A stretch of 19,149 bases of DNA, taken from assembly GCA_027491395.1 (NCBI GenBank), contig JAOZFI010000014.1:1-19149 (forward strand), written 5' to 3'. Shown in pieces: positions 1 through 19,149 of this stretch. The DNA is from Thermoproteota archaeon (GTDB lineage Archaea > Korarchaeota > Korarchaeia > Korarchaeales > Korarchaeaceae). The notes below the pieces were generated by a model. It was given only the letters and a program-made list of their open reading frames with translations. It did not search any database and was not told where the DNA came from. The position numbers and the translations under genes were made by a program. How positions within the stretch are numbered: position 1 is the first letter of the stretch; each line of letters opens with the position of its first letter.

Positions 1-632
1 CTCTCTATCTCCAGCAACGCGTTAGCCATGGCGTATATCAGACCGAACCAGTGATCCAGCTTCCCCTTCGGCTTGAGGTGCCTCGTCTTGGACCTGCCAG
101 CTGCTAGTATCGCGACCTGCAGGTTACAGTCGTTCACCAAGTAGTGCCTCCTAACATCCCAGCCTAGGAAGTCAAGTATCCGGGCGAAGGAGTCGCCTAT
201 TATAGCGTTCCTCCCGCTACCTACGTGGAGGGGATGTACTGGGTTGACGCTGGTGTGCTCCACCATCAACTCCTCTCCCCTCCTCTCCCCCCTGCCCAGC
301 TCCTCCCTAGACGCCAAGGAGAGGACATCCTTGAAGAGGGCCTCACGAGAAACCCTTACGTTGAGGTATCCATTTTCAACCCTTACTTCCTCGGTATACG
401 GTATACTGGAGGTATCTATCCTCTCAGCCACTAAAAGCGCCGCTTCGTCCGGCTTCCTCCTCAGGTATCTAGCTACCTTGAATCCGACTGGTAGTCCATA
501 GACATCCGCATCCTTGGGGGACCGAGCCACTTGAAGGGGGGAGAAGGACTCCTCCACTACCATCTCTGAGAGGGCCTTATTCACTTCATCAACTAGAGCT
601 GATTTCATGGAGCCGAGCGGATCCGTGGTCAT
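1..632 (-). CDS. argS: Arginine--tRNA ligase, N-terminal part (runs off the window edge)
   Basis: Manual minus-strand translation from ATG 632: MTTDPLGSMKSALVDEVNKALSE...LMVEHTSVNPVHPLHVGSGRNAIIGDSFARILDFLGWDVRRHYLVND. This is the ArgRS 'EHTSxNP..PLHxGH.RN.IIGD' signature. Absent from the ORF track because it has no stop in the window. Confidence 0.95.
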   Translation of the reverse strand, partial: MTTDPLGSMKSALVDEVNKALSEMVVEESFSPLQVARSPKDADVYGLPVGFKVARYLRRKPDEAALLVAERIDTSSIPYTEEVRVENGYLNVRVSREALFKDVLSLASREELGRGERRGEELMVEHTSVNPVHPLHVGSGRNAIIGDSFARILDFLGWDVRRHYLVNDCNLQVAILAAGRSKTRHLKPKGKLDHWFGLIYAMANALLEIE

Positions 633-651
633 CCCTTTAACTTTGGGTTCG

Positions 652-660
652 TTATTTAAA
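652..660. promoter_or_regulatory. Probable bidirectional TATA box for the divergent argS and ATL-endoV genes
   Basis: TTATTTAAA in a 47-nt GC-poor gap, 20-28 nt from both ATG 632 (-) and CTG 680 (+). Confidence 0.55.
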
Positions 661-679
661 ACGGTGGTGAGGGATCCGA

Positions 680-1546
680 CTGACGCGCTTCCAAGAGATA
701 CTTGCTAAGGCCTTGCAGAGCATTCCCCCGGGCAGGGTTTCATCATTCGGTGCCATAGCCTCCGCCCTAGGGGATGTCAGGGCCGCTCTCGCTGTGAGAA
801 ACGAGTGCCTAAGGCTATCTAACCTCGCACCTCATGTTCCTTGGTGGAGGGCCGTGTCGTCCGATGGTAAACCACTTCCGGGAGCCTTGAAGAGAATCAG
901 GGAGGAGGGAGGACTTGAACACCTCAGGAAGAGGGAGTTCTTCCACGACATCAGGGCCTGGCCCGTCTTCCGGTTGATGGCGGAGGCTCAGCTAATGCTC
1001 TCCTCTAGGCTGGATCTAAGGTCCCTGAAAGGAGTTGAAGTGGCTGCCGGTGTCGACGTCAGTTATGGGGGCGAGGAGGCTGTCGCGGCCTGCGTCTCGA
1101 TCGATTCAAAATTGGAGATCGTTGAAGTCAGTTACGAGAGGTTCGTCCCTCAGATACCTTATGTGCCGACCTACTTGGCCTTCAGGGAGTTGAGGGGCAT
1201 GCTTCCCTCCGCCCTCAGGTGCGATTTCGATGTGATATTTGTGGATGGGCACGGGCTCTCCCATCCGAGGATGCTAGGGGAGGCCTCACATTTGGGGTTG
1301 CTTCTGGGGAAACCCTCCATCGGAGTTGCGAAGTCTAAGCTGGTAGGGAGATTGGAGGGGGACCGTGTCTTACTCCGAGGCAGGGAGGTCGGTGCCGTAG
1401 TGAGGAGGGGTTTCGTCTCCCCCGGTCACTTGGTGGACTTGGAGAGCAGCATAGAGATATCCAAGGAGTTCTGGAGGGAAGGAAAGCAACCTCTACCCCT
1501 CATACTAGCCCACAGGATTTCCAAGGAGGCTATACGGGGATCCTGA
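680..1546 (+). CDS. nfi: Alkyltransferase-like (ATL/MGMT DNA-binding) domain fused to endonuclease V
   Basis: N-terminal domain 'IPPGRVSSFGAIA...VPWWRAV' has the MGMT fold with Trp in place of the PCHR Cys. C-terminal domain has EndoV motifs GVDVSY, YVPTYLAFRE, VDGHGLSHPR, GVAKS and a terminal LAH. Start extended from TTG 713 to in-frame CTG 680 (see findings). Confidence 0.9.
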   Translation: MTRFQEILAKALQSIPPGRVSSFGAIASALGDVRAALAVRNECLRLSNLAPHVPWWRAVSSDGKPLPGALKRIREEGGLEHLRKREFFHDIRAWPVFRLMAEAQLMLSSRLDLRSLKGVEVAAGVDVSYGGEEAVAACVSIDSKLEIVEVSYERFVPQIPYVPTYLAFRELRGMLPSALRCDFDVIFVDGHGLSHPRMLGEASHLGLLLGKPSIGVAKSKLVGRLEGDRVLLRGREVGAVVRRGFVSPGHLVDLESSIEISKEFWREGKQPLPLILAHRISKEAIRGS

Positions 1547-2981
1547 TCTCGCGCGATTTCCCAGCCTCCAGATCAACCCTCATGACGGAGTCCTTGCCCT
1601 CGGGGTTTATCACCATGAGTTGTAGGTCCTTCACATCATTGTAGGGCATTATCTTGCCCTCCAAGTACTTCCTGTCGTACCTGAAGGTGCCCTTCACACC
1701 GCTCACCGCCCTGAACCTCTCAACTAGGGTGCTGGGTGGGGCGACCCATATCCCCCTCTCGTGAGCGTTCCTGAGGAGCGAGAGAGTGGATAGCTCGTCC
1801 ATCGCGTCGACCGCCACCATGCACCCCCAATTGGCCACGAACTCCGCTGCTCTCGAAGCAGCTCCTCTATCAGAGACCCTCCCTACCAGTGGGATGTTCC
1901 AGACAAGGCCGTTAGGCCTGAATGGGCATCCGATGCCAAGCGGGAACCCGAATTCCCCAGCGATCTCGCCAGCCAGTACGTATCCCGCCTCGACGTATAC
2001 CGCCGACTTCCAAGCGTCCATCAGGGTGGAGGCTATACCCTTGAACCTGATCCCTATGCCTCCCCTCTTTATGAGGGTGGCCACCTCCTCATACTCCTCG
2101 GCCATCGACATGTGATCTATGGAGGCCCTGACTGAGGCTAGGAGGCCCACCTCGTGACCGTCCTCCTCCATTGATATGAGCAGGTCCCTGATCTTACTCG
2201 GAGTGTAGTCTTCTCCCTTCCCCACGAAGAACGTGAGGTCCTCAGTTCCCTTAATCAACCTCTCTATCCAAGATTCCGTTCTTCGAAGCAACCTTCTCAG
2301 GTCGAACCTCAGGCCGGAACGCCCCGTCCTATATATGGGAATAGAGACGGACATCCCTCCCCTGTAGCCAGAAGGGGAGATCTGCTTCATTATGAGAGGG
2401 AGCTTCTCCCTTTTGTGGAGAAGAAGAATGGAGAAGAGAAGGAACTTGGCATGCAAGTCAACTATAGGAGTGGATACGGGGACCCCTCTGAGGTCCTCCA
2501 AGACCTTGGGATTGAATCGCCTGTCGCTGGTCCTTATCCTCTTTATACCCAAGGAGGACTCCGCCCCCTTTAGGAAGTAGCTCACGTTCCTGAAGAGGTC
2601 GTATCCCAAGAGAAGGTGCGAATCCTTCGAGTAGAGAGGGGCCTGCCTGAGCAGTCTCTCGCCTTCTGGATCATACTTGGCTCCAAAGTAGGGTATCTTT
2701 ATCCTGTCCACTACCATGAAGCCTGCAGGCTCAGGCGGGGATTTCTTCACCTCAGTCTTATCTCCCCCATAGTATGAGAGGGCTGTCTCGCCCACGAATA
2801 TCGAGGGGATAGTCACTGGGACGAATTCGGTGGCCTCTGGGAATATGGCCACGGAGTGCTTTAAGGGATCTGGTTCGTCCACCTCCTCCCAGAACAGTCC
2901 CAGTGAGTCCAATGTGTGTTTGACCGCATCTCTCACATCACTGTCCAGGGATCTAACAGCCGCAATGTTCGTCGGGACCAC
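1530..2981 (-). CDS. Polysaccharide deacetylase-like (NodB/CE4-fold) protein, probably catalytically degenerate
   Basis: GTG at 2981 preceded by GGGGG; the ORF-track extension to 3101 reads through the tRNA. The segments 'YDLFRNVSYFL..E...RF...PIVD', 'TFF', 'GHEVGL', 'GIRF' and 'GFPLG...PFRP' follow the CE4-like layout, but the HDVD and His motifs are missing. Confidence 0.55.
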   Translation of the reverse strand: MVPTNIAAVRSLDSDVRDAVKHTLDSLGLFWEEVDEPDPLKHSVAIFPEATEFVPVTIPSIFVGETALSYYGGDKTEVKKSPPEPAGFMVVDRIKIPYFGAKYDPEGERLLRQAPLYSKDSHLLLGYDLFRNVSYFLKGAESSLGIKRIRTSDRRFNPKVLEDLRGVPVSTPIVDLHAKFLLFSILLLHKREKLPLIMKQISPSGYRGGMSVSIPIYRTGRSGLRFDLRRLLRRTESWIERLIKGTEDLTFFVGKGEDYTPSKIRDLLISMEEDGHEVGLLASVRASIDHMSMAEEYEEVATLIKRGGIGIRFKGIASTLMDAWKSAVYVEAGYVLAGEIAGEFGFPLGIGCPFRPNGLVWNIPLVGRVSDRGAASRAAEFVANWGCMVAVDAMDELSTLSLLRNAHERGIWVAPPSTLVERFRAVSGVKGTFRYDRKYLEGKIMPYNDVKDLQLMVINPEGKDSVMRVDLEAGKSREIRIPV

Positions 2982-3039
2982 GCCCCCTATAGAACGGAGG
3001 TGGTGGGGCCGGTGGGACTTGAACCCACGTCCTACGGGT

Positions 3040-3061
3040 CTCCCCCTCAGTGCTCCAATGA
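3040..3061 (-). other. 22-nt tRNA intron at the canonical 37/38 position
   Basis: Sequence UCAUUGGAGCACUGAGGGGGAG. Central helix CUCC/GGGG, 3' bulge AG|A, relaxed 5' side (bulge-helix-loop type). Confidence 0.9.
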
Positions 3062-3082
3062 CTGGAGCCCGCCGCCCTACCT

Positions 3083-3118
3083 TTCCAGGGCGTTCCCCCA
3101 ATCATGGGGGGAGAGCCA
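3083..3118 (-). other. Non-canonical 36-nt tRNA intron in the D-loop (position 17/17a)
   Basis: Bulge-helix-bulge: central helix CCAG/CUGG, 3-nt bulges CC|U and AA|A, inner helix GGC/GCC. Splicing restores the D-loop AGCCAGGUA. Confidence 0.85.
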
Positions 3119-3150
3119 GGCTGGGCCACGGCCCCCCGAATCCTCCTCCC

Positions 3151-3174
3151 TTTAAATCGAGGAAGTTATATAAA
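3151..3174. promoter_or_regulatory. Divergent TATA boxes for tRNA-Trp (-) and the thiolase operon (+)
   Basis: TTTAAA (3151-3156) and TTATATAAA (about 3166-3174) lie in the 59-nt gap between the tRNA 5' end (3135) and ATG 3195. Confidence 0.6.
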
Positions 3175-3194
3175 TAGTTTGTCTGGTGTTAGCG

Positions 3195-4079
3195 ATGAAA
3201 TGCCACTACTGCCAGCGTGAAGGTACTATATTCGTAGATAATTTAGGTGATTGGGTTTGCGAGGAGCACTTCGAGAGGTATTTCCTGAAAAGAGTTGATC
3301 GCGTGTTGAGGAGGGTCAGGAAAGGTAGTTCCCTCCTGTACGGGGTGTCGGGCGGGAAGGATTCGGTGGCAGCCCTGCACGCGTCCAGCCTAGTCGCATC
3401 CAAGTACCGGCTCAAGCTGGGGGCCGCGATAGTGTACACTGGCTTGGCCCCCGATTGCCTCGAGGTATTCAAATCCCTGACCGAGGAGCTGGGACTGGAC
3501 GGGATCGTGATAGATGTAAGGGCCTGGGGGATAAAGATCCCTCCCGATCCCAGGGCTGCCTGTTTTGTCTGCGGGGTGGTCAACAGGTACCTGCTTAATA
3601 GGTACGCTGTGGAGAGGGGATACGATTACGTCGCTACAGGCCACAACTTGGACGACATGGCCTACTTCGGGTTCAATAACCTCATCACCCATTCCCTAGA
3701 TTACCTCTTCTACCAGTACGATTCCGTCACCAGGCCGATGCCCGAGTACAGGATGGCCGGGAAGGTGAAGCCCCTCTTCTGGGTCAGCGACTCCGATGCC
3801 CTGAACTACGTGAGGATGAAGAGCCTCCCAACCTGCATTACCAAGTGCCCTTACGAGGGAAGGGATAAGCAGGCCGAAATCAAACCCCTACTTAATCAGG
3901 TCAGGAAGAAGTGGCCTCCATCCCTAGTCAATTTCGTGAGCAGTTTGAGGGAGCTTGCGAAGACAGCCGAACCTCCACCACGCAAGATTAATCTATGTGA
4001 GAGGTGCGGTTACCCGACATCGGGCAGGGTTTGCGCCTTCTGCAGGCTGAAGGAGAGGCTCGAGAGGGAGGTAGTGTGA
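3195..4079 (+). CDS. TtuA/Ncs6(CTU1)-like PP-loop tRNA thiolation enzyme
   Basis: N-terminal Zn finger CHYC...CEEH, PP-loop SGGKDS, CFVC, GHNLDD, KPLF, CP and C-terminal Zn finger CERC...CAFC. ATG 3195 follows GGTG; GTG 3186 is an alternative start. Confidence 0.88.
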   Translation: MKCHYCQREGTIFVDNLGDWVCEEHFERYFLKRVDRVLRRVRKGSSLLYGVSGGKDSVAALHASSLVASKYRLKLGAAIVYTGLAPDCLEVFKSLTEELGLDGIVIDVRAWGIKIPPDPRAACFVCGVVNRYLLNRYAVERGYDYVATGHNLDDMAYFGFNNLITHSLDYLFYQYDSVTRPMPEYRMAGKVKPLFWVSDSDALNYVRMKSLPTCITKCPYEGRDKQAEIKPLLNQVRKKWPPSLVNFVSSLRELAKTAEPPPRKINLCERCGYPTSGRVCAFCRLKERLEREVV

Positions 4080-4840
4080 TGAGGCTCTTCGACGCCCACT
4101 GTCACCTCGAGGAGGAGGCTTTCGACGGGGATAGGGATGAGGTGATTGAGAGGGCGAGAGAAGCGGGACTGGTGGGCATAGTGACCTCTCCCATTTACCC
4201 GGAAGATGCGGAGAAAGCTCTGAGGTTATTCAGGAACCATCAGCTGGTGAAGGTGTCTATTGGATTGGATGTCGCTGAGTACGGAGATGAGGAGGAGGTA
4301 AAGGTCACTATGGATCTTATAAGGGCCCACGTCGATGAGATAGTCGCGGTAGGAGAGGTGGGGCTGGATTACAGGATTTTAAGGTCGGATGGTCCCTCAA
4401 AGGAGAAGCAGAAGGAGGTATTTAGGCTCTTCATAAGGCTCGCCAAAGAGCTGGACAAACCATTGGTAATTCACAGCCTGTGGGCTCAAAGACCAGTTCT
4501 AAGAGTGTTAGACGAGGAAGGAGCTGAGAGGGTCGTCCTACACGCATTTGGAGGAACCCCAGAGGATGTCAGGTTTGCAGTGGAGAGGGGATGGATGGTC
4601 AGTATCCCCACCAATGTAGTGAGGTCCAACAACGTTCAGAAGGTGGCTGGAGCCACTCCAGTGGATCATATGGTGCTGGAGTCCGACTCGCCTGTGCTCG
4701 CTCCCAACCCCAAGGAGAGGAATGAACCCGCGAACATCAGGATCTCAGCAAAGTTCGTGGCCGAAATGAAGGGGATCGATGTCGAGGATTTGGCAGAGAT
4801 AACCACTAGAAACGCCATGAGGGTGTACGGTCTTGGGTAA
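4079..4840 (+). CDS. tatD: TatD-family metal-dependent nuclease/hydrolase
   Basis: Motifs DAHCH, GEVGLDY, VIHS, LHAF, LESDSP and RNEPAN. ATG 4079 overlaps the upstream TGA (TGATG); the extension to 4004 is spurious. Confidence 0.92.
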   Translation: MRLFDAHCHLEEEAFDGDRDEVIERAREAGLVGIVTSPIYPEDAEKALRLFRNHQLVKVSIGLDVAEYGDEEEVKVTMDLIRAHVDEIVAVGEVGLDYRILRSDGPSKEKQKEVFRLFIRLAKELDKPLVIHSLWAQRPVLRVLDEEGAERVVLHAFGGTPEDVRFAVERGWMVSIPTNVVRSNNVQKVAGATPVDHMVLESDSPVLAPNPKERNEPANIRISAKFVAEMKGIDVEDLAEITTRNAMRVYGLG

Positions 4841-5645
4841 GAGGAAGGGGCCTAGGGTACCTTACGATCTCATAGGCTCCAGGGAGACGGGAGCTGTGGC
4901 CATCGTAGAGGTACCCGAGGGCATGGACCCGGAGGAGGCGGCTAGGGAGGTGATGAGTCGCCATCCACACGTCAAGTCCGTTCTGTTGAAGGCGGGGGCT
5001 AGAGAGGGTGAGTTCAGGGTGAGGCCCCTGAAGCTCCTAGCCGGCAGTGAGGAGACGGAGGTCATCCACAAGGAACACGGATACAGGATAAAGCTCGATC
5101 CCCGTAGAGTCTACTTCTCCCCCAGGGAATCGACCGAGAGGCAGCTGGTGGCGGAAAGCGTGAGGGACGGGGAACTGGTGCTCGTCATGTTCGCGGGAGC
5201 CGGTCCCTACGCCATCGCCATTGCAAAGCGCAGGAGGGCCCAAGTGGTCGGGATCGAGCTGAACCCGATAGCTGTCAGGTACTTCCAAGAGAATGTGATC
5301 CTCAACAGGGTGGGGCACCTCGTCTTCCCCATCGAGGGAGATGTGGCTTACGTCACGCCCGCTATGTACGGCAGATTCGACAGGGTGGTCATGCCCCTAC
5401 CCAAGGGGGCTTACGCCTTCATCGGTTACGCCCTCCGAGCGCTCAGGGGAGGGAAGGGTGTCATTCACTTTTACTACTGGGGTGGAGATGAGGCCCTCTC
5501 GGAGGCCGAGGAGATGTTCAGGAAGGAAGCCGCCTCCATAGGTTTAGAGGCCACCTCCATAGGTTACCGCATTGTCTCCAGCTATGCTCCTAAGGTGTAC
5601 AAGATGCGTGTGGATTTTTTAGTGAGACCTTTAAATGTAGAGTGA
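4833..5645 (+). CDS. trm5: Trm5-family tRNA (G37) methyltransferase, Trm5a/Taw22-like
   Basis: Motifs GEFRVR, HKEHG, VYFSPR..ER, MFAGAGPY, IELNP and DRVVMPLPK. At 270 aa it lacks the D1 domain. Confidence 0.88.
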   Translation: MGKRKGPRVPYDLIGSRETGAVAIVEVPEGMDPEEAAREVMSRHPHVKSVLLKAGAREGEFRVRPLKLLAGSEETEVIHKEHGYRIKLDPRRVYFSPRESTERQLVAESVRDGELVLVMFAGAGPYAIAIAKRRRAQVVGIELNPIAVRYFQENVILNRVGHLVFPIEGDVAYVTPAMYGRFDRVVMPLPKGAYAFIGYALRALRGGKGVIHFYYWGGDEALSEAEEMFRKEAASIGLEATSIGYRIVSSYAPKVYKMRVDFLVRPLNVE

Positions 5646-5701
5646 AGTTTGAAAATTAGGTTTTTAGTTCAACCCTCAGTATCGATAGAGGGGATTCCAA
5701 A

Positions 5702-6496
5702 TTGGACCGGAATTTACGAGAAGACGTCAAGGATCTTCTAAACAGCCTCTCTCCAGAAATGAGGACCAGAGTCATCGATCACTTGGACCGACTAAACAAA
5801 ACGTTCCCCATAAATGAGGGCCCCCTCTACGAACTCATCTCATCCTTTAAGAAGAGCTTGGAGGCGGTGAATCACATTCCCAGCCTCCTCACTGACAAAT
5901 TGACCGATCATTTCAGGATGAATAGGGATAGATTCGCTAATCAGTTCCAGCAAGACGTCGAATTTCTCATCAAGGCCGGAGATATCAGGGAGTTGGACGA
6001 GGCTGAGGTGAAGCTGCTCACGCAGGCTGCCAAGGATTCCATGGAGGCCATGTTCTCCTCACTGATTGATGCGATGAGTAAAGTACTGAATGATTATCTC
6101 AGGTGGGCCCCCAAGGCACTAGGTCCCTCCGCTGGTAACGGAGTTGCCGAGAGGACATTGGACCTGTTCGCTACCCTCATGTACCAGCTGGCACTGGCTA
6201 AGGCAGAGAAGGATCTCTGCAGAGAGGAGGTCGAATCGCTCAAGAACGTGGTGATGCCTAGGGCTACGGGAAGGTACAAGGTGCTTGAAGTCCTCGAGAA
6301 AGCCACCGAACCCATGAGGACCATAGCCATAGCTTCGGAGCTCGGACTGGCCGAAGTGACGGTGAGGAGGTACATAAAGGACTTGGAAAAGGAGGAGCTC
6401 GTGGAGAGGGTCGGCAATGGCAAGCCCTACAAGTATGTCCTGAGGGATAGGAATTGGAGGAAGAAGTTGGTAGAGCGGAGGAAGAAAAGGAAGTAA
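5702..6496 (+). CDS. Putative transcription regulator with a helical/coiled-coil N-terminal region and C-terminal winged HTH
   Basis: C-terminus 'YKVLEVLEK..EPMRTIAIASELGLAEVTVRRYIKDLEKEELVERVG..KPYKYVL' is a typical wHTH. TTG start follows GAGGGG. Confidence 0.75.
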   Translation: MDRNLREDVKDLLNSLSPEMRTRVIDHLDRLNKTFPINEGPLYELISSFKKSLEAVNHIPSLLTDKLTDHFRMNRDRFANQFQQDVEFLIKAGDIRELDEAEVKLLTQAAKDSMEAMFSSLIDAMSKVLNDYLRWAPKALGPSAGNGVAERTLDLFATLMYQLALAKAEKDLCREEVESLKNVVMPRATGRYKVLEVLEKATEPMRTIAIASELGLAEVTVRRYIKDLEKEELVERVGNGKPYKYVLRDRNWRKKLVERRKKRK

Positions 6497-6714
6497 TTGT
6501 TCTATTATCTCCTATATGCGAATCCTCCTTGAATGCCGCCCGCCGACTGAAGGAGTGGGCCCATCGCAGGGGCTTGAAGATCAGAGAGGTCTCTGCCTTG
6601 GAGCCTGAGGGGCAGAGCTACATACTGGAGTTAGGTATAAGAAAGGTCCCAGCCGTCATAATCGGGGGAAAGCTGATCTCTGAGGGGAGGATAAAGTTTC
6701 CAGAGGTCTCCTGA
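6454..6714 (+). CDS. Small glutaredoxin/thioredoxin-fold protein (CxxS)
   Basis: 'SPICESS' active-site position and 'GIRKVPAVIIGG' cis-Pro motif. Its stop is coupled to the next ATG. Start position uncertain. Confidence 0.75.
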   Translation: MEEEVGRAEEEKEVIVLLSPICESSLNAARRLKEWAHRRGLKIREVSALEPEGQSYILELGIRKVPAVIIGGKLISEGRIKFPEVS

Positions 6715-7832
6715 TGCGTAGTGAGGTGCTCATAGTTGGAGGAGGTATCTCCGGCTCTACGCTCGCCTATCTGCTGTCGAGGAAGGGCTTCTCCGTTACC
6801 GTGGTTGAGAGGAGGAGAGTCATAGGGCATCCACACCACTGCTCCGGTATACTGGGTCCTGACGCCGTAAGCGAGCTTATGCTCTTCTCCGAGGAATGGG
6901 TCATCGGAGAGGTAAACTGGGCGACCTTCGTATCTCCCGGAGGTAATGAAATAGAGGTACGGAGGCACCTAGCCACGGTCGTCGACAGGACCCAGATGGA
7001 CAGGGAGACATGGGAAGCGGCGCTCTCAGAGGGAGCTAGGGGGTTCCTCTCGACAGGATTCAAGGGATTAAGATCGAAGAACGAGGCTCTCGTGGGCAAT
7101 ATGGTGATAGAGTACAACCTGCTGGTGGGAGCGGATGGGGCCCTCTCCTCTGTAGCTGATGAGCTTGGCTTCCCACCCATGAGAATCGAGATTGGGGTTC
7201 ACAAGATCGTGGAGGGCGGGAAGATGGATGGCTACCAAGTGAAAGTGAGGAAGGGTAGCAGGTTCAGCTGGATCCAGCCTTGGAAGGGAGGGAGGAAAGT
7301 GGGGGCGCTGGGAAGGATCGATGATCCGCTGCTCACATGGATCCAAGAGACATCGGGAGATCCGGCGATTGGGTACGAGGGAGGGGTGATCCCGGTAGGT
7401 CCGAGAAAGAGATTCTGGATGGATAATGTGGCGCTGGTGGGAGATGCAGCTGGCCAAATAAAGCCTGTTAGTAGGGGAGGGGTCCTACTAGCGGTTAGGG
7501 GAGCAAAGAATCTAGCTGGCTGTCTCGAGGACTTGGACGACTTGGAAAGGGCCCTGAGGTGCTACGAGTCAAGGTGGTGGAGGCACAACAGGCGTGAGAT
7601 CTCCCTAGGATGGGCAGTGAGGAAGTATCTGGAATCCCTGAATGACCGGCAGATTGACACGCTCTTCACCCTAGTTCGTGGGGAAGGCCTCTTGGAAAGG
7701 GACTTTCACGTGGACAGGCAGTCAGCACCACTCAAAATCAGTCGTTTACCTAAAATTCTTAAATTAGCTTCCGTGAATATAGGATCAGCTGCATCGGCCC
7801 TCGCCGAGGCACTGAAGTACATGCTACGGTGA
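6714..7832 (+). CDS. Geranylgeranyl reductase-family FAD oxidoreductase
   Basis: Motifs GGGISG, CSG, VDR..MD, GADG and LVGDAAGQIKP..GG. The PxxYxWxFP motif is only partly kept (GSRFSWIQP). Confidence 0.85.
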   Translation: MRSEVLIVGGGISGSTLAYLLSRKGFSVTVVERRRVIGHPHHCSGILGPDAVSELMLFSEEWVIGEVNWATFVSPGGNEIEVRRHLATVVDRTQMDRETWEAALSEGARGFLSTGFKGLRSKNEALVGNMVIEYNLLVGADGALSSVADELGFPPMRIEIGVHKIVEGGKMDGYQVKVRKGSRFSWIQPWKGGRKVGALGRIDDPLLTWIQETSGDPAIGYEGGVIPVGPRKRFWMDNVALVGDAAGQIKPVSRGGVLLAVRGAKNLAGCLEDLDDLERALRCYESRWWRHNRREISLGWAVRKYLESLNDRQIDTLFTLVRGEGLLERDFHVDRQSAPLKISRLPKILKLASVNIGSAASALAEALKYMLR

Positions 7833-8485
7833 TAGAAAAGATGATGGAGTTCCTGACTGAGATCCTGCTGGGCATTGGCGTCACCCTTTTCTCGTTCATC
7901 CTCTTTAAAATGTATTCCAGCATTCCTGAGGTGACCTCGGCCCTAATCTCGATCAATCTCGGGCTCTACGCTATGACGTCTCCCGCACTCCTCGAGGCGA
8001 ACAGGTACGTGCTCCTCTACTTCGGCAGTTCAGGCCTCTACTTGATGCATGGTAGGTACTATACATTGATCACGTCAATGTTCCTCCACGCCAATATCCT
8101 CCACCTAGGGCTGAACATGTATGCCCTATACATACTAGGCAAGGTGGTTGAGTTATCCCTAGGTAGGATCAAGTACCTCCTCATGTACTTTATCTCGGGC
8201 GTGGTTGGGAACCTCCTGTCAGCTTTCCTCGATCCCCGCACGGTGGGAGTTGGGGCCTCAGGGGCTATAATGGGCCTCTTAGGATACATGGTTGCCATGG
8301 AATATAGGGTGACTGGAAAGCTGAGTTCCTCCACCATATTCATAGCGCTCTTCGTGATCTTCGGTGGTTTCTCAGCTAATGTGGACGTGCTGGCCCACGC
8401 TGGCGGCTTCGTCGTTGGGTTGATGTGGGGTCTAGGCAGGAGGTTCAGGCCCGCCTACACCGTCAGCTATGACCTCTATTATTGA
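7829..8485 (+). CDS. Rhomboid-family intramembrane serine protease
   Basis: SMFLHANILHLGLNM, catalytic GASG and AHAGG motifs, with multiple hydrophobic helices. Confidence 0.93.
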   Translation: MIEKMMEFLTEILLGIGVTLFSFILFKMYSSIPEVTSALISINLGLYAMTSPALLEANRYVLLYFGSSGLYLMHGRYYTLITSMFLHANILHLGLNMYALYILGKVVELSLGRIKYLLMYFISGVVGNLLSAFLDPRTVGVGASGAIMGLLGYMVAMEYRVTGKLSSSTIFIALFVIFGGFSANVDVLAHAGGFVVGLMWGLGRRFRPAYTVSYDLYY

Positions 8486-8559
8486 GGTAATATGGGGAAA
8501 TAACAGATATCGGCATCCCATTTTAAGAGTTCAGGTGAACGATCACATGGGTCGTGTGA

Positions 8560-8853
8560 ATGTTCAAGGTTAGAGAGGTAAAGAGAGTTAATGACGTTAG
8601 ATGGGAACCGGGGTTTAGACTGGTTCATCTAAGGGAAGATCAGAGGTGGCCAGAGCAGTTCTATTCGGAGGAGGGCTACCATGTGGAGGTCAAGGCCCCC
8701 ATGTCGTATCACAAGGGGAGCTGGATCGCACCTCGTGGGATCTACGCCATGGTCGATTACGAGATAACCCTGAAGGGGAGGAGGATAAAGGTCAGGAGGG
8801 TCGTTCACGAGAGTGATCCATACTTCCTAAAGGTGGTTCAGGAGATGCTCTAG
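8560..8853 (+). CDS. Hypothetical protein, 97 aa
   Basis: Fills the gap between genes, has similar codon usage (AGG/ATA) and an upstream TTTTAAG box at 8521. No family recognised. Confidence 0.7.
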   Translation: MFKVREVKRVNDVRWEPGFRLVHLREDQRWPEQFYSEEGYHVEVKAPMSYHKGSWIAPRGIYAMVDYEITLKGRRIKVRRVVHESDPYFLKVVQEML

Positions 8854-8889
8854 TTATATAGTTTGGCGGCGCCGTACCGGAGGTAAAGC

Positions 8890-9462
8890 ATGCTGCTAGG
8901 GAAGCTTGTGATTGTTCCAGCCGGCTTCATATACCATTGGATACTAGAATTCCTCGCCGAGAAGCTGACTCAGGCCTACCCAATCGATGTGGAAATCGAT
9001 TATACCGAGATTAAAATTCCCCCGACGTTGTACGACCACAACACCCAGCAGCTGAGGAGCGAGAAGTTCCTAGAGTACCTGTGGCAGATCGACAGATGGG
9101 CATCGGATGAGAAAGTACTTGCTGTGGTGGATGAAGATGCATACGCCAGAGGGACCAACTTCATCTTCGGTCAGGCTGAGCTTGGGGGAAGGTTCGGGTC
9201 CATCTACCTTCCCAGACTCAAGCCAGAATTCTACGGTGAGAGGGAGAACAGGGGGCTTTTCCTCCTGAGAACTCTTAAGGAGGCCTCCCATGAGCTAGGT
9301 CATCTTCTAGGCTTGGACCACTGTCCCACTCCGAGCTGCGTCATGAACTTCAGCCTCTCCGTGTGGGACGTTGACAGGAAGGACTGGAGACCCTGCGACA
9401 AGTGCCTAGGGAAGCTGGGTGTTCTCGATGTCAGGGCAAAGACCAGACGTCAGCAGATATGA
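8890..9462 (+). CDS. amzA: Archaemetzincin zinc metalloprotease
   Basis: HELGHLLGLDHC-x4-CVM...C-x2-C, plus NFIFG and D.K motifs. Confidence 0.93.
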   Translation: MLLGKLVIVPAGFIYHWILEFLAEKLTQAYPIDVEIDYTEIKIPPTLYDHNTQQLRSEKFLEYLWQIDRWASDEKVLAVVDEDAYARGTNFIFGQAELGGRFGSIYLPRLKPEFYGERENRGLFLLRTLKEASHELGHLLGLDHCPTPSCVMNFSLSVWDVDRKDWRPCDKCLGKLGVLDVRAKTRRQQI

Positions 9463-10195
9463 TCTGCTGCTCGTTGATATAGACGGCGTCGTCTGGCTTG
9501 ATGGAGAGCCAATAGGAAGCGCCGTGGAGGCCCTCAACGAGCTCTCCTCTATGATCGAGATTGGGTTCGTAACCAACAACTCCACCCGTCACAGACGCGT
9601 GATAGCCTCCCTTCTGAGGGATGCGGGCTTGGGATGGGTTAGAGAGGAGCACGTGATAACGAGCGCCAGCACGCTTGCCGACATAGTCCCCTCGATAGGG
9701 GTGGAGAGGTGTTACGTGGTAGGTGAGGAGGGCCTCAGGGAGGAGTTAAGGGAGAGAGGGGTGGACATGTCGGATGAGGGTGACGTGTGCGTGGGAATGG
9801 ACAGGTCCTTCAATTACCGGAAGCTGACGAGGGCCCTGAGGAACATATTGAGAGGGGGGCTCTTTCTAGCCACTAACGAGGATCGCACCCTTCCCACATC
9901 AGGTGGACCAATTCCCGGAGCTGGTTCCATGGTTTCAGCAATTTCTGGAGCTTGTGGCAGGAGACCGGATCTTGTAGTGGGTAAACCGAATCCCCTCATG
10001 TTTCTCCTCACCTCTCGAAGCGTTGGGGCATCCCACCCCCTAGTGATCGGGGACAGACCGGAGACGGACATTCTGGGGGCCTTGAGGGCGGGAATGGACT
10101 CCGCTTTGGTCCTCACTGGGGTGGTGAAGGAGTATGAGGGGGTGGTACCTCGACCCAAGTACGTTTTGAGGAGCTTGATGGACCTGATCCGCTGA
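9428..10195 (+). CDS. HAD-IIA (NagD-like) phosphatase
   Basis: Motifs DIDGV, TNNS, GKP and GDRPETDILGA. Start is ATG 9428 or GTG 9419. Confidence 0.92.
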   Translation: MSGQRPDVSRYDLLLVDIDGVVWLDGEPIGSAVEALNELSSMIEIGFVTNNSTRHRRVIASLLRDAGLGWVREEHVITSASTLADIVPSIGVERCYVVGEEGLREELRERGVDMSDEGDVCVGMDRSFNYRKLTRALRNILRGGLFLATNEDRTLPTSGGPIPGAGSMVSAISGACGRRPDLVVGKPNPLMFLLTSRSVGASHPLVIGDRPETDILGALRAGMDSALVLTGVVKEYEGVVPRPKYVLRSLMDLIR

Positions 10196-10635
10196 GGGGA
10201 GTTAAGGGGGCTTACATCCTCCTGATAATCTCTCCCGGCGCCGTCCTTGAAGTGGGAAGGTTGGGAACCTTCGAGTTCCCAGCTGGCGTTCTCGCGTATG
10301 TCGGCTCAGCGGCGGGATCTGGTGGCTTGGGAGCTAGGATAGGGAGGCATTTCAGGAAAGGGAAGACCTTGAGGTGGCACGTGGACTACTTGACAGAGGT
10401 CATGGACGTGCCATGTGCCTTGGCATTCCCCGATGCTGAAGAAGTGTCCTTATCTAGGATCCTTAGAGAGGTGGGAGTCCCGATCATCAGGGGATTCGGC
10501 TGCTCGGACAGGAGGGCCGATGAGACCCACCTCTACCTGATAGGTGAGGACCTCAAGGAGGCACTGGAGATCTTGGGAAGGATCGAATGGGGAAGGGCCT
10601 ATCTGATATGGAACCCCTTTTACAGGCTTAGATGA
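10192..10635 (+). CDS. DUF123 / GIY-YIG (Uri superfamily) nuclease-like protein
   Basis: In-frame 'KGAYILLI' upstream of the track start, then YVGSA, RIGRH, RWHVDYL, GFGCSD and THL. Proposed CTG start at 10192. Confidence 0.85.
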   Translation: MRGVKGAYILLIISPGAVLEVGRLGTFEFPAGVLAYVGSAAGSGGLGARIGRHFRKGKTLRWHVDYLTEVMDVPCALAFPDAEEVSLSRILREVGVPIIRGFGCSDRRADETHLYLIGEDLKEALEILGRIEWGRAYLIWNPFYRLR

Positions 10636-11419
10636 GCCCTAAATCTTTGGGAGTGACATAAAAGACTAGCTTGTACCTATGGTAATCCCTGATCACTTGC
10701 CTAGCTGCCTCCTCAATGTTGGGTTCCCCGTCTTTGAACCTCCAGCCTCTCTTCTCCGCCAACTGCTCCAGTATCTCGATGGGATCCGTATCCTCGATAC
10801 CATAGATCCTCTTCACGATCCCGGGATTAGATCTGAGGGCTCTCTCCAAGAGGGACACGGCGACCTCCACGGGGTTCTTCAGTTCCTCAGGGGGATAACC
10901 TCTTATGGCCATTTCGAGCGGACCACCCTCTACCGGAAGGATCCCCGGGGAATCCAGTATGTACAGGTTCCTGTCTATCCTGTAGAGCTGGAAGTGGCGC
11001 GTGTACCCGGGATTGCCGGGCACAGGGCTGGTTGAGGCGGAGCTCCTTCCCTTGAGGACATTTATTATCGAGCTCTTTCCCACCTTCGGGAAGCCTGCTA
11101 TGAGTACCTTGGCTGGCAGCTCGGGGGCTTCCCTCTTGATGAACCTCCTCAACCTCATGGTGCCCAGTCTCTCCCTCGCGCTCAAGTAGGTCGCTTTCAA
11201 GCCATCCTCCTCGAATATCCTCACCCACTGGTCTAGTATCTCCCTAGGAACCAGATCTGACTTGTTTATCGCCGCGAGGATCTTCCTTCCCTTTCTCTTA
11301 GCCATCTCCTCGAGTTTGCGGCTTCTAGTCGTCCAAGGGTCCCTAGAGTCGACGACCTCCAGCACCACATTTACCCTGTCCATAGCTTTCGCTATTTCCC
11401 TCCAGCTGGCTACCTTCAT
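10628..11419 (-). CDS. Circularly permuted ribosome-biogenesis GTPase (RbgA/YlqF family)
   Basis: G4 NKSD precedes G1 GFPKVGKS, G2 PGYT and G3 DSPG; N-terminal DSRDP. Confidence 0.93.
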   Translation of the reverse strand: MKVASWREIAKAMDRVNVVLEVVDSRDPWTTRSRKLEEMAKRKGRKILAAINKSDLVPREILDQWVRIFEEDGLKATYLSARERLGTMRLRRFIKREAPELPAKVLIAGFPKVGKSSIINVLKGRSSASTSPVPGNPGYTRHFQLYRIDRNLYILDSPGILPVEGGPLEMAIRGYPPEELKNPVEVAVSLLERALRSNPGIVKRIYGIEDTDPIEILEQLAEKRGWRFKDGEPNIEEAARQVIRDYHRYKLVFYVTPKDLGLI

Positions 11420-11440
11420 CCAGAATAAGTGTAGCGACGC

Positions 11441-11448
11441 TTTATATC
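11441..11448 (-). promoter_or_regulatory. TATA box of the GTPase gene (probably leaderless mRNA)
   Basis: GATATAAA on the minus strand, 22-29 nt upstream of ATG 11419, with no SD before the ATG. Confidence 0.5.
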
Positions 11449-11522
11449 ACTTCCGCACCGCACGAGGGCGGGGGATTGGTAGGTAAGTTAAGGTTAAGGG
11501 ATTCACCCAAGCCCATCCCCAG

Positions 11523-12560
11523 ATGAAGTTCGTCTACGACGACTCCATATCCTCATACGACTTCGGTCCGGGTCATCCATTCAGAGGGGATAGATTCCCC
11601 TCCTTCATCAGATTTCTCAAGGAGAGGGGTGAGCCTTTCGAGCTTGTGGGGTACGTCGGCGAACCACCGACCATCGAGGATCTGAGGGCAGTTCACGACG
11701 AAGAGTACTTGAACTTCCTCAGGGTCAGGAGTCAGACCGGGCACGGTATGGTCTCCCTAGATACGCCGGCATTCAAGGGGATGTGGGAAGCTGCGCTCAG
11801 CATGGTCTACTCCTCCATGTCAGCTGTCAGGCTCGCTTTAAAGGAGAGAGGTGCTGCGGGATTCGGAGGCGCCCACCACGCCGGTGTCAATTATGGGGGA
11901 GGCTTCTGCCTGCTGAACGACATCGCGATCGCGATCAGATGGGCCCTTAGGAACGGCGTCGGGTCCGCTGCGATATTCGACCACGACGCCCATCACGGGA
12001 ACGGCACCATGGATATATTCTACGATGACGACACGGTCCTTTACGTGAGCATTCACCAGGATCCGACCACTATCTATCCGGGCGTGGGTTTCGCGAGGCA
12101 GGTGGGGAGGGGTAGGGGGGAGGGGTACACGGTTAACATCCCCCTGCCTCCCGGAGCGGGACCCTCCTCCTATGAGATGGCTTTCGAGGAGCTGGTAAGG
12201 CCCATTGTGGAGTCCTTCGCGCCCAAGCTGCTCATAGCTCACGGAGGAAGCGATCCACACTTTCTGGATCCACTCACACAGTTGGGATTGGATTTGAGGG
12301 GGCTCTGGAAGCTGGGGAGGTGGGCATCGTCACTTCCAGCCGATCACAGGGTGGAACTCCTCATAAGCGGTTACAACGAGCATGTGAGGAACTGGGGGTG
12401 GCTGGGGATAGTTAGAGGATTCGCATCCCTAGACATGGGCTTCGACCCGGAGGAGATTGAAGGCAGGGCTCCGAACGATGACGATTACGTTATTCGAAGG
12501 GCCAGGTTGGCCATAGACGATGCAAAGAGCGTACTCTCCAAGTACTGGAACCTCTCCTGA
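11523..12560 (+). CDS. Histone deacetylase / AcuC-family Zn-dependent deacetylase
   Basis: Motifs HPF, DTP, GGAHHA, GFC..ND, DHDAHHGNGT, SIHQ, DPHFLDPL and SGY. Confidence 0.93.
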   Translation: MKFVYDDSISSYDFGPGHPFRGDRFPSFIRFLKERGEPFELVGYVGEPPTIEDLRAVHDEEYLNFLRVRSQTGHGMVSLDTPAFKGMWEAALSMVYSSMSAVRLALKERGAAGFGGAHHAGVNYGGGFCLLNDIAIAIRWALRNGVGSAAIFDHDAHHGNGTMDIFYDDDTVLYVSIHQDPTTIYPGVGFARQVGRGRGEGYTVNIPLPPGAGPSSYEMAFEELVRPIVESFAPKLLIAHGGSDPHFLDPLTQLGLDLRGLWKLGRWASSLPADHRVELLISGYNEHVRNWGWLGIVRGFASLDMGFDPEEIEGRAPNDDDYVIRRARLAIDDAKSVLSKYWNLS

Positions 12561-12610
12561 CGGGGAAATTTTTTACGCAGGCCTATCCGATCCCAGAGGA
12601 GGCACCGGCC

Positions 12611-13657
12611 TTGATAAGCATAATCATTCCCACCTACAACGAGAGAGAGAACCTAGAGGAGCTGGTGAGTCGAATAGATAGGGCACTGGCCGGTGTGGAT
12701 TATGAGATAGTGATAGTGGACGATAACTCGCCTGACGGAACGGCTGACCTGGCTAGAGAGCTCTCCTCCAAGTACCCCATCAAGGTCAAGGTGAGGCCGG
12801 GGAAGATGGGACTATCCTCTGCCGTGGTGGAGGGGCTGGAGCTGACAGAGGGAGATGTAGTGGCTGTGATGGATGCTGACCTCCAACATCCGCCTGAGCT
12901 GCTTCCTGAATTGTACAGGAAGGTAACGGAGGGTTGCGACATAGCCATAGCCTCTAGGTACGTGGAGGGAGGGTCCGTGGCTGGGTGGGGGCTGGTAAGG
13001 AGGATAATCTCTAGGGGATCGATACTGCTCGCCTGGATCCTCCTTCCGAAGGTTAGGGGTATCAGGGATCCTTCTTCTGGTTACTTCATGTTCAGGAGAT
13101 CTGTAGTGGAGGAGATTGTCGAGTATCTGGACCCCATGGGCTTCAAGATCCTCTTGGAGGTGCTGGTGAATGGGAACTATTCAAAGGTGTGTGAGGTCCC
13201 CTACACCTTCGGCGTGAGGAGGAGAGGTTCCTCAAAGCTTGGGGGCGGCGTCATACTGAGTTACCTGTTGCATGTACTGGAGCTCAGCCCTCCTATAGTC
13301 AGGTTCGCCATAGTGGGGGCTGTCGGCACCGTGGTGAATCTAACTGTCCTCTGGATCCTGCGGTACGGTCTCAAGCTGATACATGAGATCGCATCCGCCG
13401 TCGCCATAGAGGTATCCCTTCTGAGCAACTTCCTCCTCAACGACGTCTGGACATTTAGGAGGAGGAGAAGGAGCGGGTTCATTCAGAGCATTCTGAGGTA
13501 CCATGTGGCCAACCTGGCCGGCATAATCACCCAGTACGGCGTCTCGGTATCCCTTCACAGGTTCCTAGGTGTGGAGTCTCTGGCTTCCCAGTTCGTGGGT
13601 ATCTTGGTCGGGTTCCTAGTGAACTACGCCCTCAGCAGGAGCGTGGTGTGGTGGTGA
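12611..13657 (+). CDS. Dolichol-phosphate mannosyltransferase-like GT2 with a C-terminal GtrA membrane domain
   Basis: Motifs IIPTYNE, DDNSPDGT, MDADLQHPP, ASRY and GFKILLE; C-terminal 'RFAIVGAVGTVVN...NFLLNDVWTF' is GtrA-like. Confidence 0.92.
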   Translation: MISIIIPTYNERENLEELVSRIDRALAGVDYEIVIVDDNSPDGTADLARELSSKYPIKVKVRPGKMGLSSAVVEGLELTEGDVVAVMDADLQHPPELLPELYRKVTEGCDIAIASRYVEGGSVAGWGLVRRIISRGSILLAWILLPKVRGIRDPSSGYFMFRRSVVEEIVEYLDPMGFKILLEVLVNGNYSKVCEVPYTFGVRRRGSSKLGGGVILSYLLHVLELSPPIVRFAIVGAVGTVVNLTVLWILRYGLKLIHEIASAVAIEVSLLSNFLLNDVWTFRRRRRSGFIQSILRYHVANLAGIITQYGVSVSLHRFLGVESLASQFVGILVGFLVNYALSRSVVWW

Positions 13658-13658
13658 G

Positions 13659-16289: not shown

Positions 16290-16694
16290 CGTGCACCCCT
16301 TCACCTCAAGATAGAGGACCCTCTCCGGATATTCCAGCATGAAATCCACCCTGCTGTCCCCGTACTTCACTTCCCTCCTCATCGAGACGAAGCCTTGGAG
16401 CTCTGGTAAGAATCCTGAAGCCAGCAGCTCGGTAGCTAGCTCCGAATGGAGGCCGGAATTGACGACAGTCCACACCTTGCCGTCCCACACCAAGAGGACC
16501 TCGCAATCAGTTTTTCTCCCGGGGTTGGATCTCTCTAAGAAGACGACTGGAGCTCCCTTCACGAACAGTTCGGTGAGTCTCCCCGGGTCCCTTACATGGC
16601 ATCTCCTCATCCCCTCTAGCGTGTCCAAGACTGCTAAGAAACGATTGGGCCTCTCGAGGAACTTACCAGATCCAAGTTTGCCTTTTATTAACAT
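15996..16694 (-). CDS. sfsA: SfsA-family PD-(D/E)xK nuclease (sugar fermentation stimulation protein)
   Basis: Motifs RPNRF, DPGRL.EL, EVKYGDSRVDF, EVKGCTL and FPDAPTERGRRH. ATG 16694 preferred over the track start. Confidence 0.95.
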   Translation of the reverse strand: MLIKGKLGSGKFLERPNRFLAVLDTLEGMRRCHVRDPGRLTELFVKGAPVVFLERSNPGRKTDCEVLLVWDGKVWTVVNSGLHSELATELLASGFLPELQGFVSMRREVKYGDSRVDFMLEYPERVLYLEVKGCTLVRNGTALFPDAPTERGRRHVLNLIRAVDEGYSAAVLFLVMRPDAEFLIPNAWTDPKFAEVLREAENRGVSMFAVTFRYLARRIEPLARIPVITSPQ

Positions 16695-16753
16695 ACGGGC
16701 CCCTATGCTACCAACATTTTTATGAATTCTCCGCCTCAAGGCGTGTGAGTCCC

Positions 16754-17938: not shown

Positions 17939-17947
17939 GCGCTACAG

Positions 17948-18952: not shown

Positions 18953-18995
18953 AAAAGAAGTGAAGTTGAATTTGATACTGACTCCAAAAAAGGGA
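18953..18995 (-). terminator. Possible U-rich terminator between convergent genes
   Basis: Minus strand reads TTCCCTTTTTT...CTTCTTTT downstream of the stop at 19028. Confidence 0.4.
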
Positions 18996-19027
18996 ATGAT
19001 TGCGAGGGGTCGAAGGGAACAGAACGA

Positions 19028-19149
19028 TCAGGAGAAGGTTATCTTCCTGTCTTTGAGGCTCCTGTTCAGCAGATCGGCGTGTTCTAGGGTCACCTGATAC
19101 TCTGCCAGTTTCGTCAGCTCGAGGGACGGGATGGTCACCTTGTTCACAT
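19028..19149 (-). CDS. C-terminal end of an unidentified CDS entering from the right edge
   Basis: Open frame VNKVTIPSLELTKLAEYQVTLEHADLLNRSLKDRKITFS*, with TGA at 19030-19028. Confidence 0.55.
   Translation of the reverse strand, partial: VNKVTIPSLELTKLAEYQVTLEHADLLNRSLKDRKITFS

Follow-up and report, generated by a model that had tools for sequence, protein, structure and literature searches.

A putative box C/D guide for the wobble cytidine of tRNA-Trp, divided between two introns of a korarchaeal precursor

Intron-borne guides that direct 2'-O-methylation of C34 (Cm34) in tRNA-Trp are the textbook case of a functional tRNA intron. The gene considered here raises the question of whether two short introns of a single precursor may act together as such a guide. 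The gene lies on the minus strand of a 19,149-nt stretch of DNA (contig JAOZFI010000014.1, positions 1 to 19,149, assembly GCA_027491395.1; the whole stretch is hereafter called the window) from a Thermoproteota archaeon of the Korarchaeaceae, and comprises three exons, an intron in the D loop and an intron next to the anticodon (Table 1). A short guide complementary to the tRNA's own anticodon loop and a box D occupy the anticodon intron, a box C-like sequence occupies the D-loop intron, and an inter-intron stem that covaries among relatives places the two boxes opposite each other. On these grounds we consider it probable, at roughly two chances in three, that the two introns together form a box C/D guide aimed at the wobble cytidine of the tRNA that contains them.

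The guide pairs with GCUCCAG (3068-3062) of the anticodon arm through six Watson–Crick pairs and a U3058·G3062 wobble, and A3051 is the sole spacer base between guide and box D. The fifth base upstream of CUGA is G3055, which pairs with C3065, that is, with C34. No RUGAU occurs within the 22 nt of the anticodon intron (3061-3040), and the only partner box is that of the D-loop intron, where it directly follows S1. The strands S1 (UCUCCCCC) and S2 (GGGGGAGA) are perfectly complementary, and S2 overlaps the H' strand and 3' splice bulge of the bulge-helix-bulge (BHB) splicing motif of the anticodon intron and takes in the exon base A38. Kink-turn roles, assigned from the sequence and from the general rules of kink-turn geometry, would fall to C3106, A3105 and U3104 as the 3-nt bulge, to G3103 and A3102 as sheared-pair bases, and to U3101 as the next base. 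No C'/D' motif was recognised by eye, there being no second GA/GA pair between box C and guide, and the introns carry the C34 guide alone, with none for U39. A preliminary description of the locus had named these elements, and each motif was recovered at its minus-strand coordinates, including the pairing of G3055 with C34 by the fifth-base rule, the absence of a box C from the anticodon intron and the perfect 8-bp stem abutting box D. Its two reservations, that box C departs from the consensus at its last two positions and that the guide duplex is 7 bp, hold as well.

Table 1. Positions of the tRNA-Trp gene, its introns and the proposed guide elements in the window (arrow, cleavage site)
Feature	Positions	Strand	Basis or remark
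Pre-tRNA-Trp(CCA) with encoded CCA end	3001..3135	minus	three exons and two introns; cloverleaf read by hand
Exon 1, tRNA positions 1-17	3119..3135	minus	BHB enumeration, alignment A2
D-loop intron, 36 nt, between C17 and A17a	3083..3118	minus	strict hBHBh'
S1 UCUCCCCC, 5' strand of inter-intron stem (putative kink-turn C stem)	3107..3114	minus	sequence, covariation
Box C region, AUGAUUG (3105-3099) after C3106	3099..3106	minus	N-R-U-G-A invariant, 28/28
GGGGGA, competing S1 partner in D-loop intron	3094..3099	minus	own hairpin, U3112-C3107 with G3099-A3094
GCC CUGG AA↓A, 3' strand of D-intron BHB (h', H', bulge)	3082..3091	minus	BHB enumeration, alignment, covariation
Exon 2, tRNA positions 17a-37	3062..3082	minus	anticodon CCA at 3065-3063; proposed target C34 at 3065
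Anticodon intron, 22 nt, canonical 37/38 position	3040..3061	minus	BHB enumeration
Guide UUGGAGC, antisense to G31-G37	3052..3058	minus	sequence; GGAGC conserved 28/28
Box D, CUGA	3047..3050	minus	sequence; final GA invariant in relatives
S2 GGGGGAGA, 3' strand of inter-intron stem	3039..3046	minus	sequence, covariation
Exon 3, tRNA positions 38-76	3001..3039	minus	sequence

In the proposed active conformation (fold B), S1, the C-rich start of the D-loop intron, would pair with S2, at the G-rich end of the other intron, a pairing that would set RUGAU against NUGA as a box C/D kink-turn consisting of a stem, a 3-nt bulge, tandem G·A pairs and a U·U pair. UUGGAGC, just 5' of box D, would pair with the anticodon loop, with C34 opposite the fifth guide base. 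L7Ae would bind the kink-turn, followed by Nop5-fibrillarin, and C34 would be 2'-O-methylated, most simply within the same molecule.

The distribution of this arrangement was followed by a BLAST search with the 135-nt stretch (E 1e-8 or better) against the 38 genomes of the order, which matched the whole stretch in 33, all of them in family f1. These are the window's own genome and 32 of the 35 others of the family, spanning four of its five genera (g1, 19 of 20 besides the window's own genome; g2, 5 of 5; g5, 4 of 4; g3, 4 of 5; g4, 0 of 1), and neither of the two genomes of genus g6, in family f2, was matched. A pattern search through all 43 genomes of the phylum returned the same 33 and gave no match in families f2 to f5. 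No tRNA-Trp was found in G023 (genus g4, 91% complete), G019 (70% complete) or G048 (71% complete). Loci with the two-intron architecture bear titles that name Candidatus Korarchaeum and Candidatus Methanodesulfokora.

Parsing of the 33 loci, 20 of which come from genomes of one genus, gave 28 distinct sequences, to which the counts out of 28 below refer. Conservation of AUGAU and CUGA and covariation of the inter-intron stem were the two comparative tests put forward in the preliminary description, and both came out in its favour. N-R-U-G-A directly follows S1 in 28/28 sequences, the next base being U in 27 and C in one, and GGAGC, a 1-nt spacer and a 4-nt box ending in GA precede S2 in all 28. 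Box D reads CUGA, AUGA, UUGA, UCGA or UAGA, so that its GA is the invariant part. S1 and S2 form 5-8 contiguous pairs that abut the boxes without gaps, in the exact kink-turn register, in every sequence, and in every sequence the fifth-base rule points to C34. The guide duplex, 7 bp in the window, shortens to 5 bp in L028 and L060, whereas genus g3 has 8 to 10 bp. Two variants among these genes may be recorded for their own sake: a third intron, of ∼28 nt and ∼46 nt respectively, lies in the T loop of L058 (G043) and L061 (G042) of genus g2, and in L059 (G045) and L062 (G047) of genus g5 tRNA position 1 is A or U facing C72, such that the first acceptor pair is, as encoded, mismatched.

Pair counting on alignment A2, in which the inter-intron helix corresponds to columns 22-29 with 102-109, reveals that four of its eight pairs change on both sides. 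These are pair 7 (columns 23-108; CG 9, GC 7), pair 6 (24-107; UA 17, GC 2), pair 4 (26-105; CG 18, UG 9, UA 1) and pair 3 (27-104; CG 24, UA 4), and the inner five pairs are formed in every sequence that has letters at those columns. Over the entire structure tested, paired cells make up 93.1%, compared with 36-58% when the partners are slid by 1-3 columns, and the observed covariation score was reached in 0 of 500 shuffles. Among the 14 haplotypes of the two strands, the summed contiguous length of cognate S1/S2 pairing is 88, a value reached by none of 20000 shuffles of S2, and the summed paired-of-8 count of 89 was reached in 107 of 20000; contiguous pairing averages 6.29 in register, and no shifted register exceeds a mean of 4.07. 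A reading without a kink-turn, in which the stem simply continues through L1 and L2 as in the fold predicted at 80 °C, was considered and rejected, as neither L1 nor L2 covaries with the opposite bases.

Each strand of the stem also has a partner in the splicing motifs or in its own intron. The two introns were placed by enumerating all possible BHB motifs across the 135-nt gene. Both fit the archaeal BHB rule of a 4-bp helix and two 3-nt bulges with cleavage behind the second base of each. In the D-loop intron the helix H joins C3124-G3121 to C3088-G3085, with CC↓U and AA↓A as its flanking bulges, while h' joins G3117-C3115 to G3091-C3089, giving a mature D loop of AGCC↓AGGUA. Two pairs of this BHB covary (alignment pair 13-54, CG in 23 and UA in 5 of the 28 sequences; pair 21-49, CG 18, UG 6 and GC 4). 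In the anticodon intron, H (4 bp) joins C32-C35 to G3045-G3042, h is the 5-bp anticodon stem and h' is a single pair. The preliminary description was right that the D loop holds an intron, which its wording implies to lie at G19/U20 (∼3115-3080); those boundaries are 3 nt off, the strict BHB being given by 3118-3083, and the motifs are unaffected. A placement at G19/U20 and two equivalents gave no BHB by hand, in contrast to the 17/17a placement. The GCCCUGGARAGG that is invariant among relatives was considered as a D' guide or as a second kink-turn and rejected, since it serves the D-intron BHB as 3' strand. An alternative hairpin GCCCUG/UAGGGC lacks consistent covariation in the alignment and is not claimed. 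Neither intron has a copy elsewhere in the genome.

Given these competing partners, the stem could in principle be a by-product of two introns that fold alone, each with its own hairpin and BHB, the complementarity arising from the G-rich partner that CUCC requires and from a hairpin rich in C and G; conservation of RUGAU and GA would then serve something else or reflect low divergence. The hairpin of the D-loop intron is indeed present and covaries, the GGGG of S2 is required by the BHB, and the dominance of one genus among the sampled genomes would fit low divergence. Compensation is nevertheless seen at positions free of BHB constraints, namely at the bulge bases of pairs 6 and 7 and in genus g3, where the S2 strand GGAGGA is displaced to ∼20 nt upstream of the intron 3' end and of the BHB strand and still matches CCUCC in S1. 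Likewise, the G-C at stem pair 6 of L059 and L062 faces G·A in the own-hairpin alternative. The events in g3 and in L059/L062 cannot be attributed to splicing motifs or to the own hairpin. Moreover, neither an invariant N-R-U-G-A nor an invariant GA set exactly against S2 is explained by a hairpin loop, and ten distant tRNA-Trp introns hold the same pair of boxes opposite each other, with a hairpin in between (see below). We hold a mere by-product to be very improbable.

Folding predictions are consistent with two states. S1 may pair with GGGGGA (3099-3094) of its own intron or with S2, the GGGG of S2 with C32-C35 in the BHB or with S1, and C32-C35 with that GGGG or with GGAG of the guide. The anticodon-intron BHB is incompatible with the inter-intron stem and the guide hairpin, and the precursor can thus, in the model, adopt two mutually exclusive folds. 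In the second state (fold A), each intron would form its own BHB, S1 would return to the own-intron hairpin and the GGGG of S2 would pair with C32-C35, upon which the splicing endonuclease could cut. With energy models that score neither kink-turns nor proteins, fold A with its two BHBs has −48.6 kcal/mol at 37 °C and −9.7 kcal/mol at 80 °C, and fold B, with the inter-intron stem, the guide hairpin and one further hairpin, has −59.6 and −21.4 kcal/mol, respectively. At 80 °C the inter-intron stem is part of the unconstrained minimum-energy fold, and all 28 sequences are predicted to form the guide hairpin (−8.3 to −19.2 kcal/mol).

Because fold B occupies both strands of the anticodon-intron BHB, methylation would precede splicing. 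A tentative extension of the proposed guide, which we regard as possible and decidedly more speculative, is a checkpoint, in which a guide particle on the precursor would block the anticodon-intron BHB (and, with an optional extra hairpin, that of the D-loop intron too), no splicing would occur until C34 is methylated and the particle has gone, and the excised introns would persist as a two-piece guide RNA. The same blockage of the BHB by fold B would, however, also suit a purely structural role, in which L7Ae binds the kink-turn as a clamp that holds one fold, orders the two splicing events or protects against heat, no methylation takes place and GGAGC merely stabilises the structure. The kink-turn signature and the covariation of the stem fit L7Ae binding as well as they fit a full C/D particle, and the missing C'/D' motif, the short guide and the incomplete box C point in the same direction. 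Against such a clamp stands the spacing of GGAGC, 1-nt spacer and 4-nt box, which is kept in 28/28 sequences and in 10/10 one-intron relatives, and which puts C34, a nucleotide methylated in other archaea, exactly at the fifth position; a structural hairpin would not need this. A role without methylation therefore appears quite unlikely to us.

Several observations weigh against a methylation guide formed by the two introns. Box C in the window is AUGAUUG as compared with RUGAUGA, its last two positions not being GA, and box D is UCGA or UAGA in genus g3. The guide duplex in the window is at or below the usual 8-12 nt (PMC2584109). Since it has no C'/D' motif, the element reads as a single-guide unit, on which only a half-unit could assemble. 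The outer three stem pairs, beyond five inner ones of the G-C or G-U kind, are unpaired in 9, 12 and 15 of the 28 sequences. We count only about four compensatory events that appear independent of each other, and the shuffles overstate significance because the sequences are related. Five of the seven pairs of the guide helix never vary among the 28 sequences, a helix that cannot covary because its exon strand is fixed. The own-intron hairpin of S1, kept in relatives, is a conserved rival partner; the unconstrained minimum-energy fold at 37 °C contains this hairpin together with the guide hairpin and not the inter-intron stem; and the stem of fold B crosses the D-intron BHB, such that the two are impossible as nested helices.

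The protein machinery that the proposed guide would require is encoded in the same genome (1.72 Mb). Fibrillarin (PF01269, 291 bits) and Nop5 (PF01798, 221 bits) are adjacent genes on contig C37, and two genes belong to the L7Ae family (PF01248, two matches). A strict-consensus scan of the genome for C/D small RNAs (sRNAs) returned none, and Rfam model RF00095 returned several with variant boxes, all below the cut-off, whose box C variants include AUGAUCU, AUGAUGU and GAUGAAG. As in the window, a terminal G/C stem abuts boxes C and D of these sRNAs in the same register, and box C lacks the final GA. They differ from the window's element in being independent transcripts of ∼55-60 nt that act in trans, mostly on rRNA, and in having C'/D' motifs and a pair of guides of 12 nt.

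A separate guide for C34 was also sought. None of the 84 GGAGC-N-NTGA sites in the genome is credible; on contig C18 (minus strand, ∼7854-7865) a guide-GUGA sequence with a 9-nt match to the spliced anticodon arm lies antisense in a 518-codon open reading frame (ORF), has no boxes and is attributed to chance. A motif search in families f2 and f3 gave 30 matches to CTGGAGC-NN-TGA in two f3 genomes, and no stand-alone sRNA was recognised among the 20 flanks viewed (five genomes; 10 flanks from f3, of the 30 matches).

The intron-borne guide might itself act only in trans, the excised introns staying paired through S1/S2 and the kink-turn and methylating other tRNA-Trp precursors or mature molecules. 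This would parallel the Haloferax intron, for which reviews describe trans action and a stable circular intron (PMC4090602, PMC3326292), and loss of the exon base A38 would leave 7 of the 8 stem pairs. At hydrothermal temperatures, however, an intermolecular guide duplex and an intermolecular stem of 7 bp each would be weak, and the guide hairpin predicted in cis in all 28 sequences argues for pairing within the precursor. Action exclusively in trans is, in our view, unlikely.

The pre-tRNA-Trp at 3001-3135 is the only tRNA-Trp gene found in the genome: among the 50 tRNAs called by ARAGORN with introns allowed, there is no other. The gene itself evades standard annotation. ARAGORN in default mode called nothing in the window, and with introns allowed it miscalled the locus as tRNA-Met with a 50-nt intron. 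Rfam at the gathering threshold missed the gene as well; at loose thresholds it gave only tRNA-like tmRNA artefacts, one of which covers exactly 3001-3135 through the acceptor and T arms, and no C/D family. Introns were called in just 8 of the 50 tRNAs, a count that includes the miscalled tRNA-Trp locus and some others that look spurious. One ARAGORN call that may be spurious is a tRNA-Gln(CTG) with an 802-nt intron on contig C26 (35180-36076). The genes in the neighbourhood of tRNA-Trp, an endonuclease V fusion and a TatD-type hydrolase, are unrelated to it; the former (ORF 713-1546, plus strand) joins a methylguanine-DNA-methyltransferase DNA-binding domain (residues 2-54) to an endonuclease V domain (residues 106-268). 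Upstream of the tRNA on the minus strand, the A/T-rich boxes TTTATATAA (3174-3166) and TTTAAA (3156-3151), noted by eye, are possible promoter elements.

If the two introns form a guide, its box C and box D halves need not share an intron in order to meet, and the search target for guide-RNA and tRNA gene finders widens accordingly, ARAGORN and Rfam both failing at this locus. At 135 nt, with a single kink-turn and a single guide, the locus would be a small natural model for the question of cis versus trans action and for the minimal requirements of a C/D particle. It would also give a plausible reason for the retention of a D-loop intron by tRNA-Trp when ARAGORN calls introns in so few tRNAs of the genome. 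Were the checkpoint to operate as well, separate introns would for the first time be seen to build one guide RNA, and the case would illustrate the splitting and relocation of a guide within a gene.

Intron-borne Cm34 guides have so far been described only as one self-contained intron, and a division between two introns would be new. As the preliminary description had supposed, full-text searches of the literature found no account of such a division, the primary Haloferax and Pyrococcus accounts and supplementary guide lists lying outside their coverage. Reviews of 2014, 2021 and 2024 speak only of a box C/D RNA nested in a single intron (PMC4090602, PMC7994747, PMC11408192). A guide for tRNA-Trp, with 8-12 nt of antisense sequence and a target set by the fifth-base rule, is reported from at least 29 archaea and as intronic in every case (PMC2584109). 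Archaea whose tRNA-Trp has been found to carry Cm34 are H. volcanii, T. kodakarensis and S. acidocaldarius (PMC7668247). With the euryarchaeal intron guides (Haloferax volcanii, Pyrococcus sR50) the window's element shares the tRNA, the intron at 37/38, the selection of C34 by the fifth-base rule, a guide conformation that competes with the splicing motif and, as would be expected here, the L7Ae-Nop5-fibrillarin machinery (PMC2584109, PMC4090602, PMC7994747). The euryarchaeal guide is described as one intron of ∼65-105 nt with all boxes and two guides, for C34 and U39, whereas the 22-nt anticodon intron of the window amounts to guide and box D, and box C lies ∼55 nt upstream in the D-loop intron. 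The window's element thus differs from the Haloferax type in that its 37/38 intron does not hold all boxes, and in having neither a dual C34/U39 guide nor C'/D' motifs. The tRNA-Trp intron of Sulfolobus solfataricus is reported as a 65-nt stable circle with 7-bp complementarities near positions 34 and 39 and without consensus boxes (PMC3326292); it is a single intron, for which no kink-turn partner is identified. Short guides and degenerate boxes are, on this showing, usual outside Euryarchaeota.

Within the phylum, tRNA-Trp genes outside family f1 are arranged differently. In family f2 (L068 = G026, L069 = G025) there is a single 57-nt anticodon intron with a conserved GGGAUGAAGA, after which come the guide CGCUCUGGAGC and, directly behind it, the BHB strand GGAG, and CUGA or CCGA lies upstream of GAUGAAGA; this guide is longer, but no box D stands at the fifth-base distance. 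Family f3 (L066 = G028, L067 = G027) has inserts in the D and T loops and no anticodon intron, and hence no cis guide for C34. In family f4 (L126 = G030, L127 = G029) the anticodon introns, of 58 and 53 nt, have several box-like motifs, GCGAUGA and AUGAUU being common to the two; of the pair, only L126 has CUGA, and L126 has D-loop and T-loop inserts in addition.

Counterparts of the window's guide and box D also come from other archaea. A scan with one genome per species for an anticodon arm, a gap and GGAGC-NN-TGAGG returned 36 stretches, of which 21 are of the two-intron type, 5 are bacterial without tRNA context and 10 are tRNA-Trp genes of other archaea. By record title the last are from Altiarchaeales/Altiarchaeota (L287, L316), Aenigmatarchaeota (L294, L299), Woesearchaeota (L301, L307), Methanosarcinales (L295) and uncultured archaea (L284, L290, L291). 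At least two further one-intron examples (L203, L243) are found on metagenome contigs among the matches listed (80 loci of 117 stretches). Read by eye, all ten carry the same guide, the 1-nt spacer, NUGA-GG, a short stem or loop ending in CC (a K-loop in L291) and N-R-U-G-A; the search pattern demanded the first half only, the RUGA half of the module not being required. The shortest, in L291, is a 28-nt intron with little beyond the guide, UUGA, GGAAA and GAUGAU, and looks like a minimal single-guide K-loop unit, which suggests that minimal one-guide forms exist. The guide-box D module of the window is homologous to these one-intron forms, sharing with them the guide core GGAGC, the 1-nt spacer, NUGA, the stem GG...CC and N-R-U-G-A. 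In the one-intron modules box C' comes after box D', and a closed hairpin or K-loop of that intron bridges the two. In the window the order is reversed: box C lies upstream of box D, as it does in a terminal C/D motif, the two boxes are separated by exon 2, and the outer end of the stem is open. Since guide, spacer and NUGA-GG are common to the ten tRNA-Trp genes from outside the family, the window's module is a relative of the ordinary intron-borne tRNA-Trp guides whose box C half has moved to the D-loop intron, and the one-intron relatives, together with the other families of the phylum, offer a series along which such a relocation might be traced.

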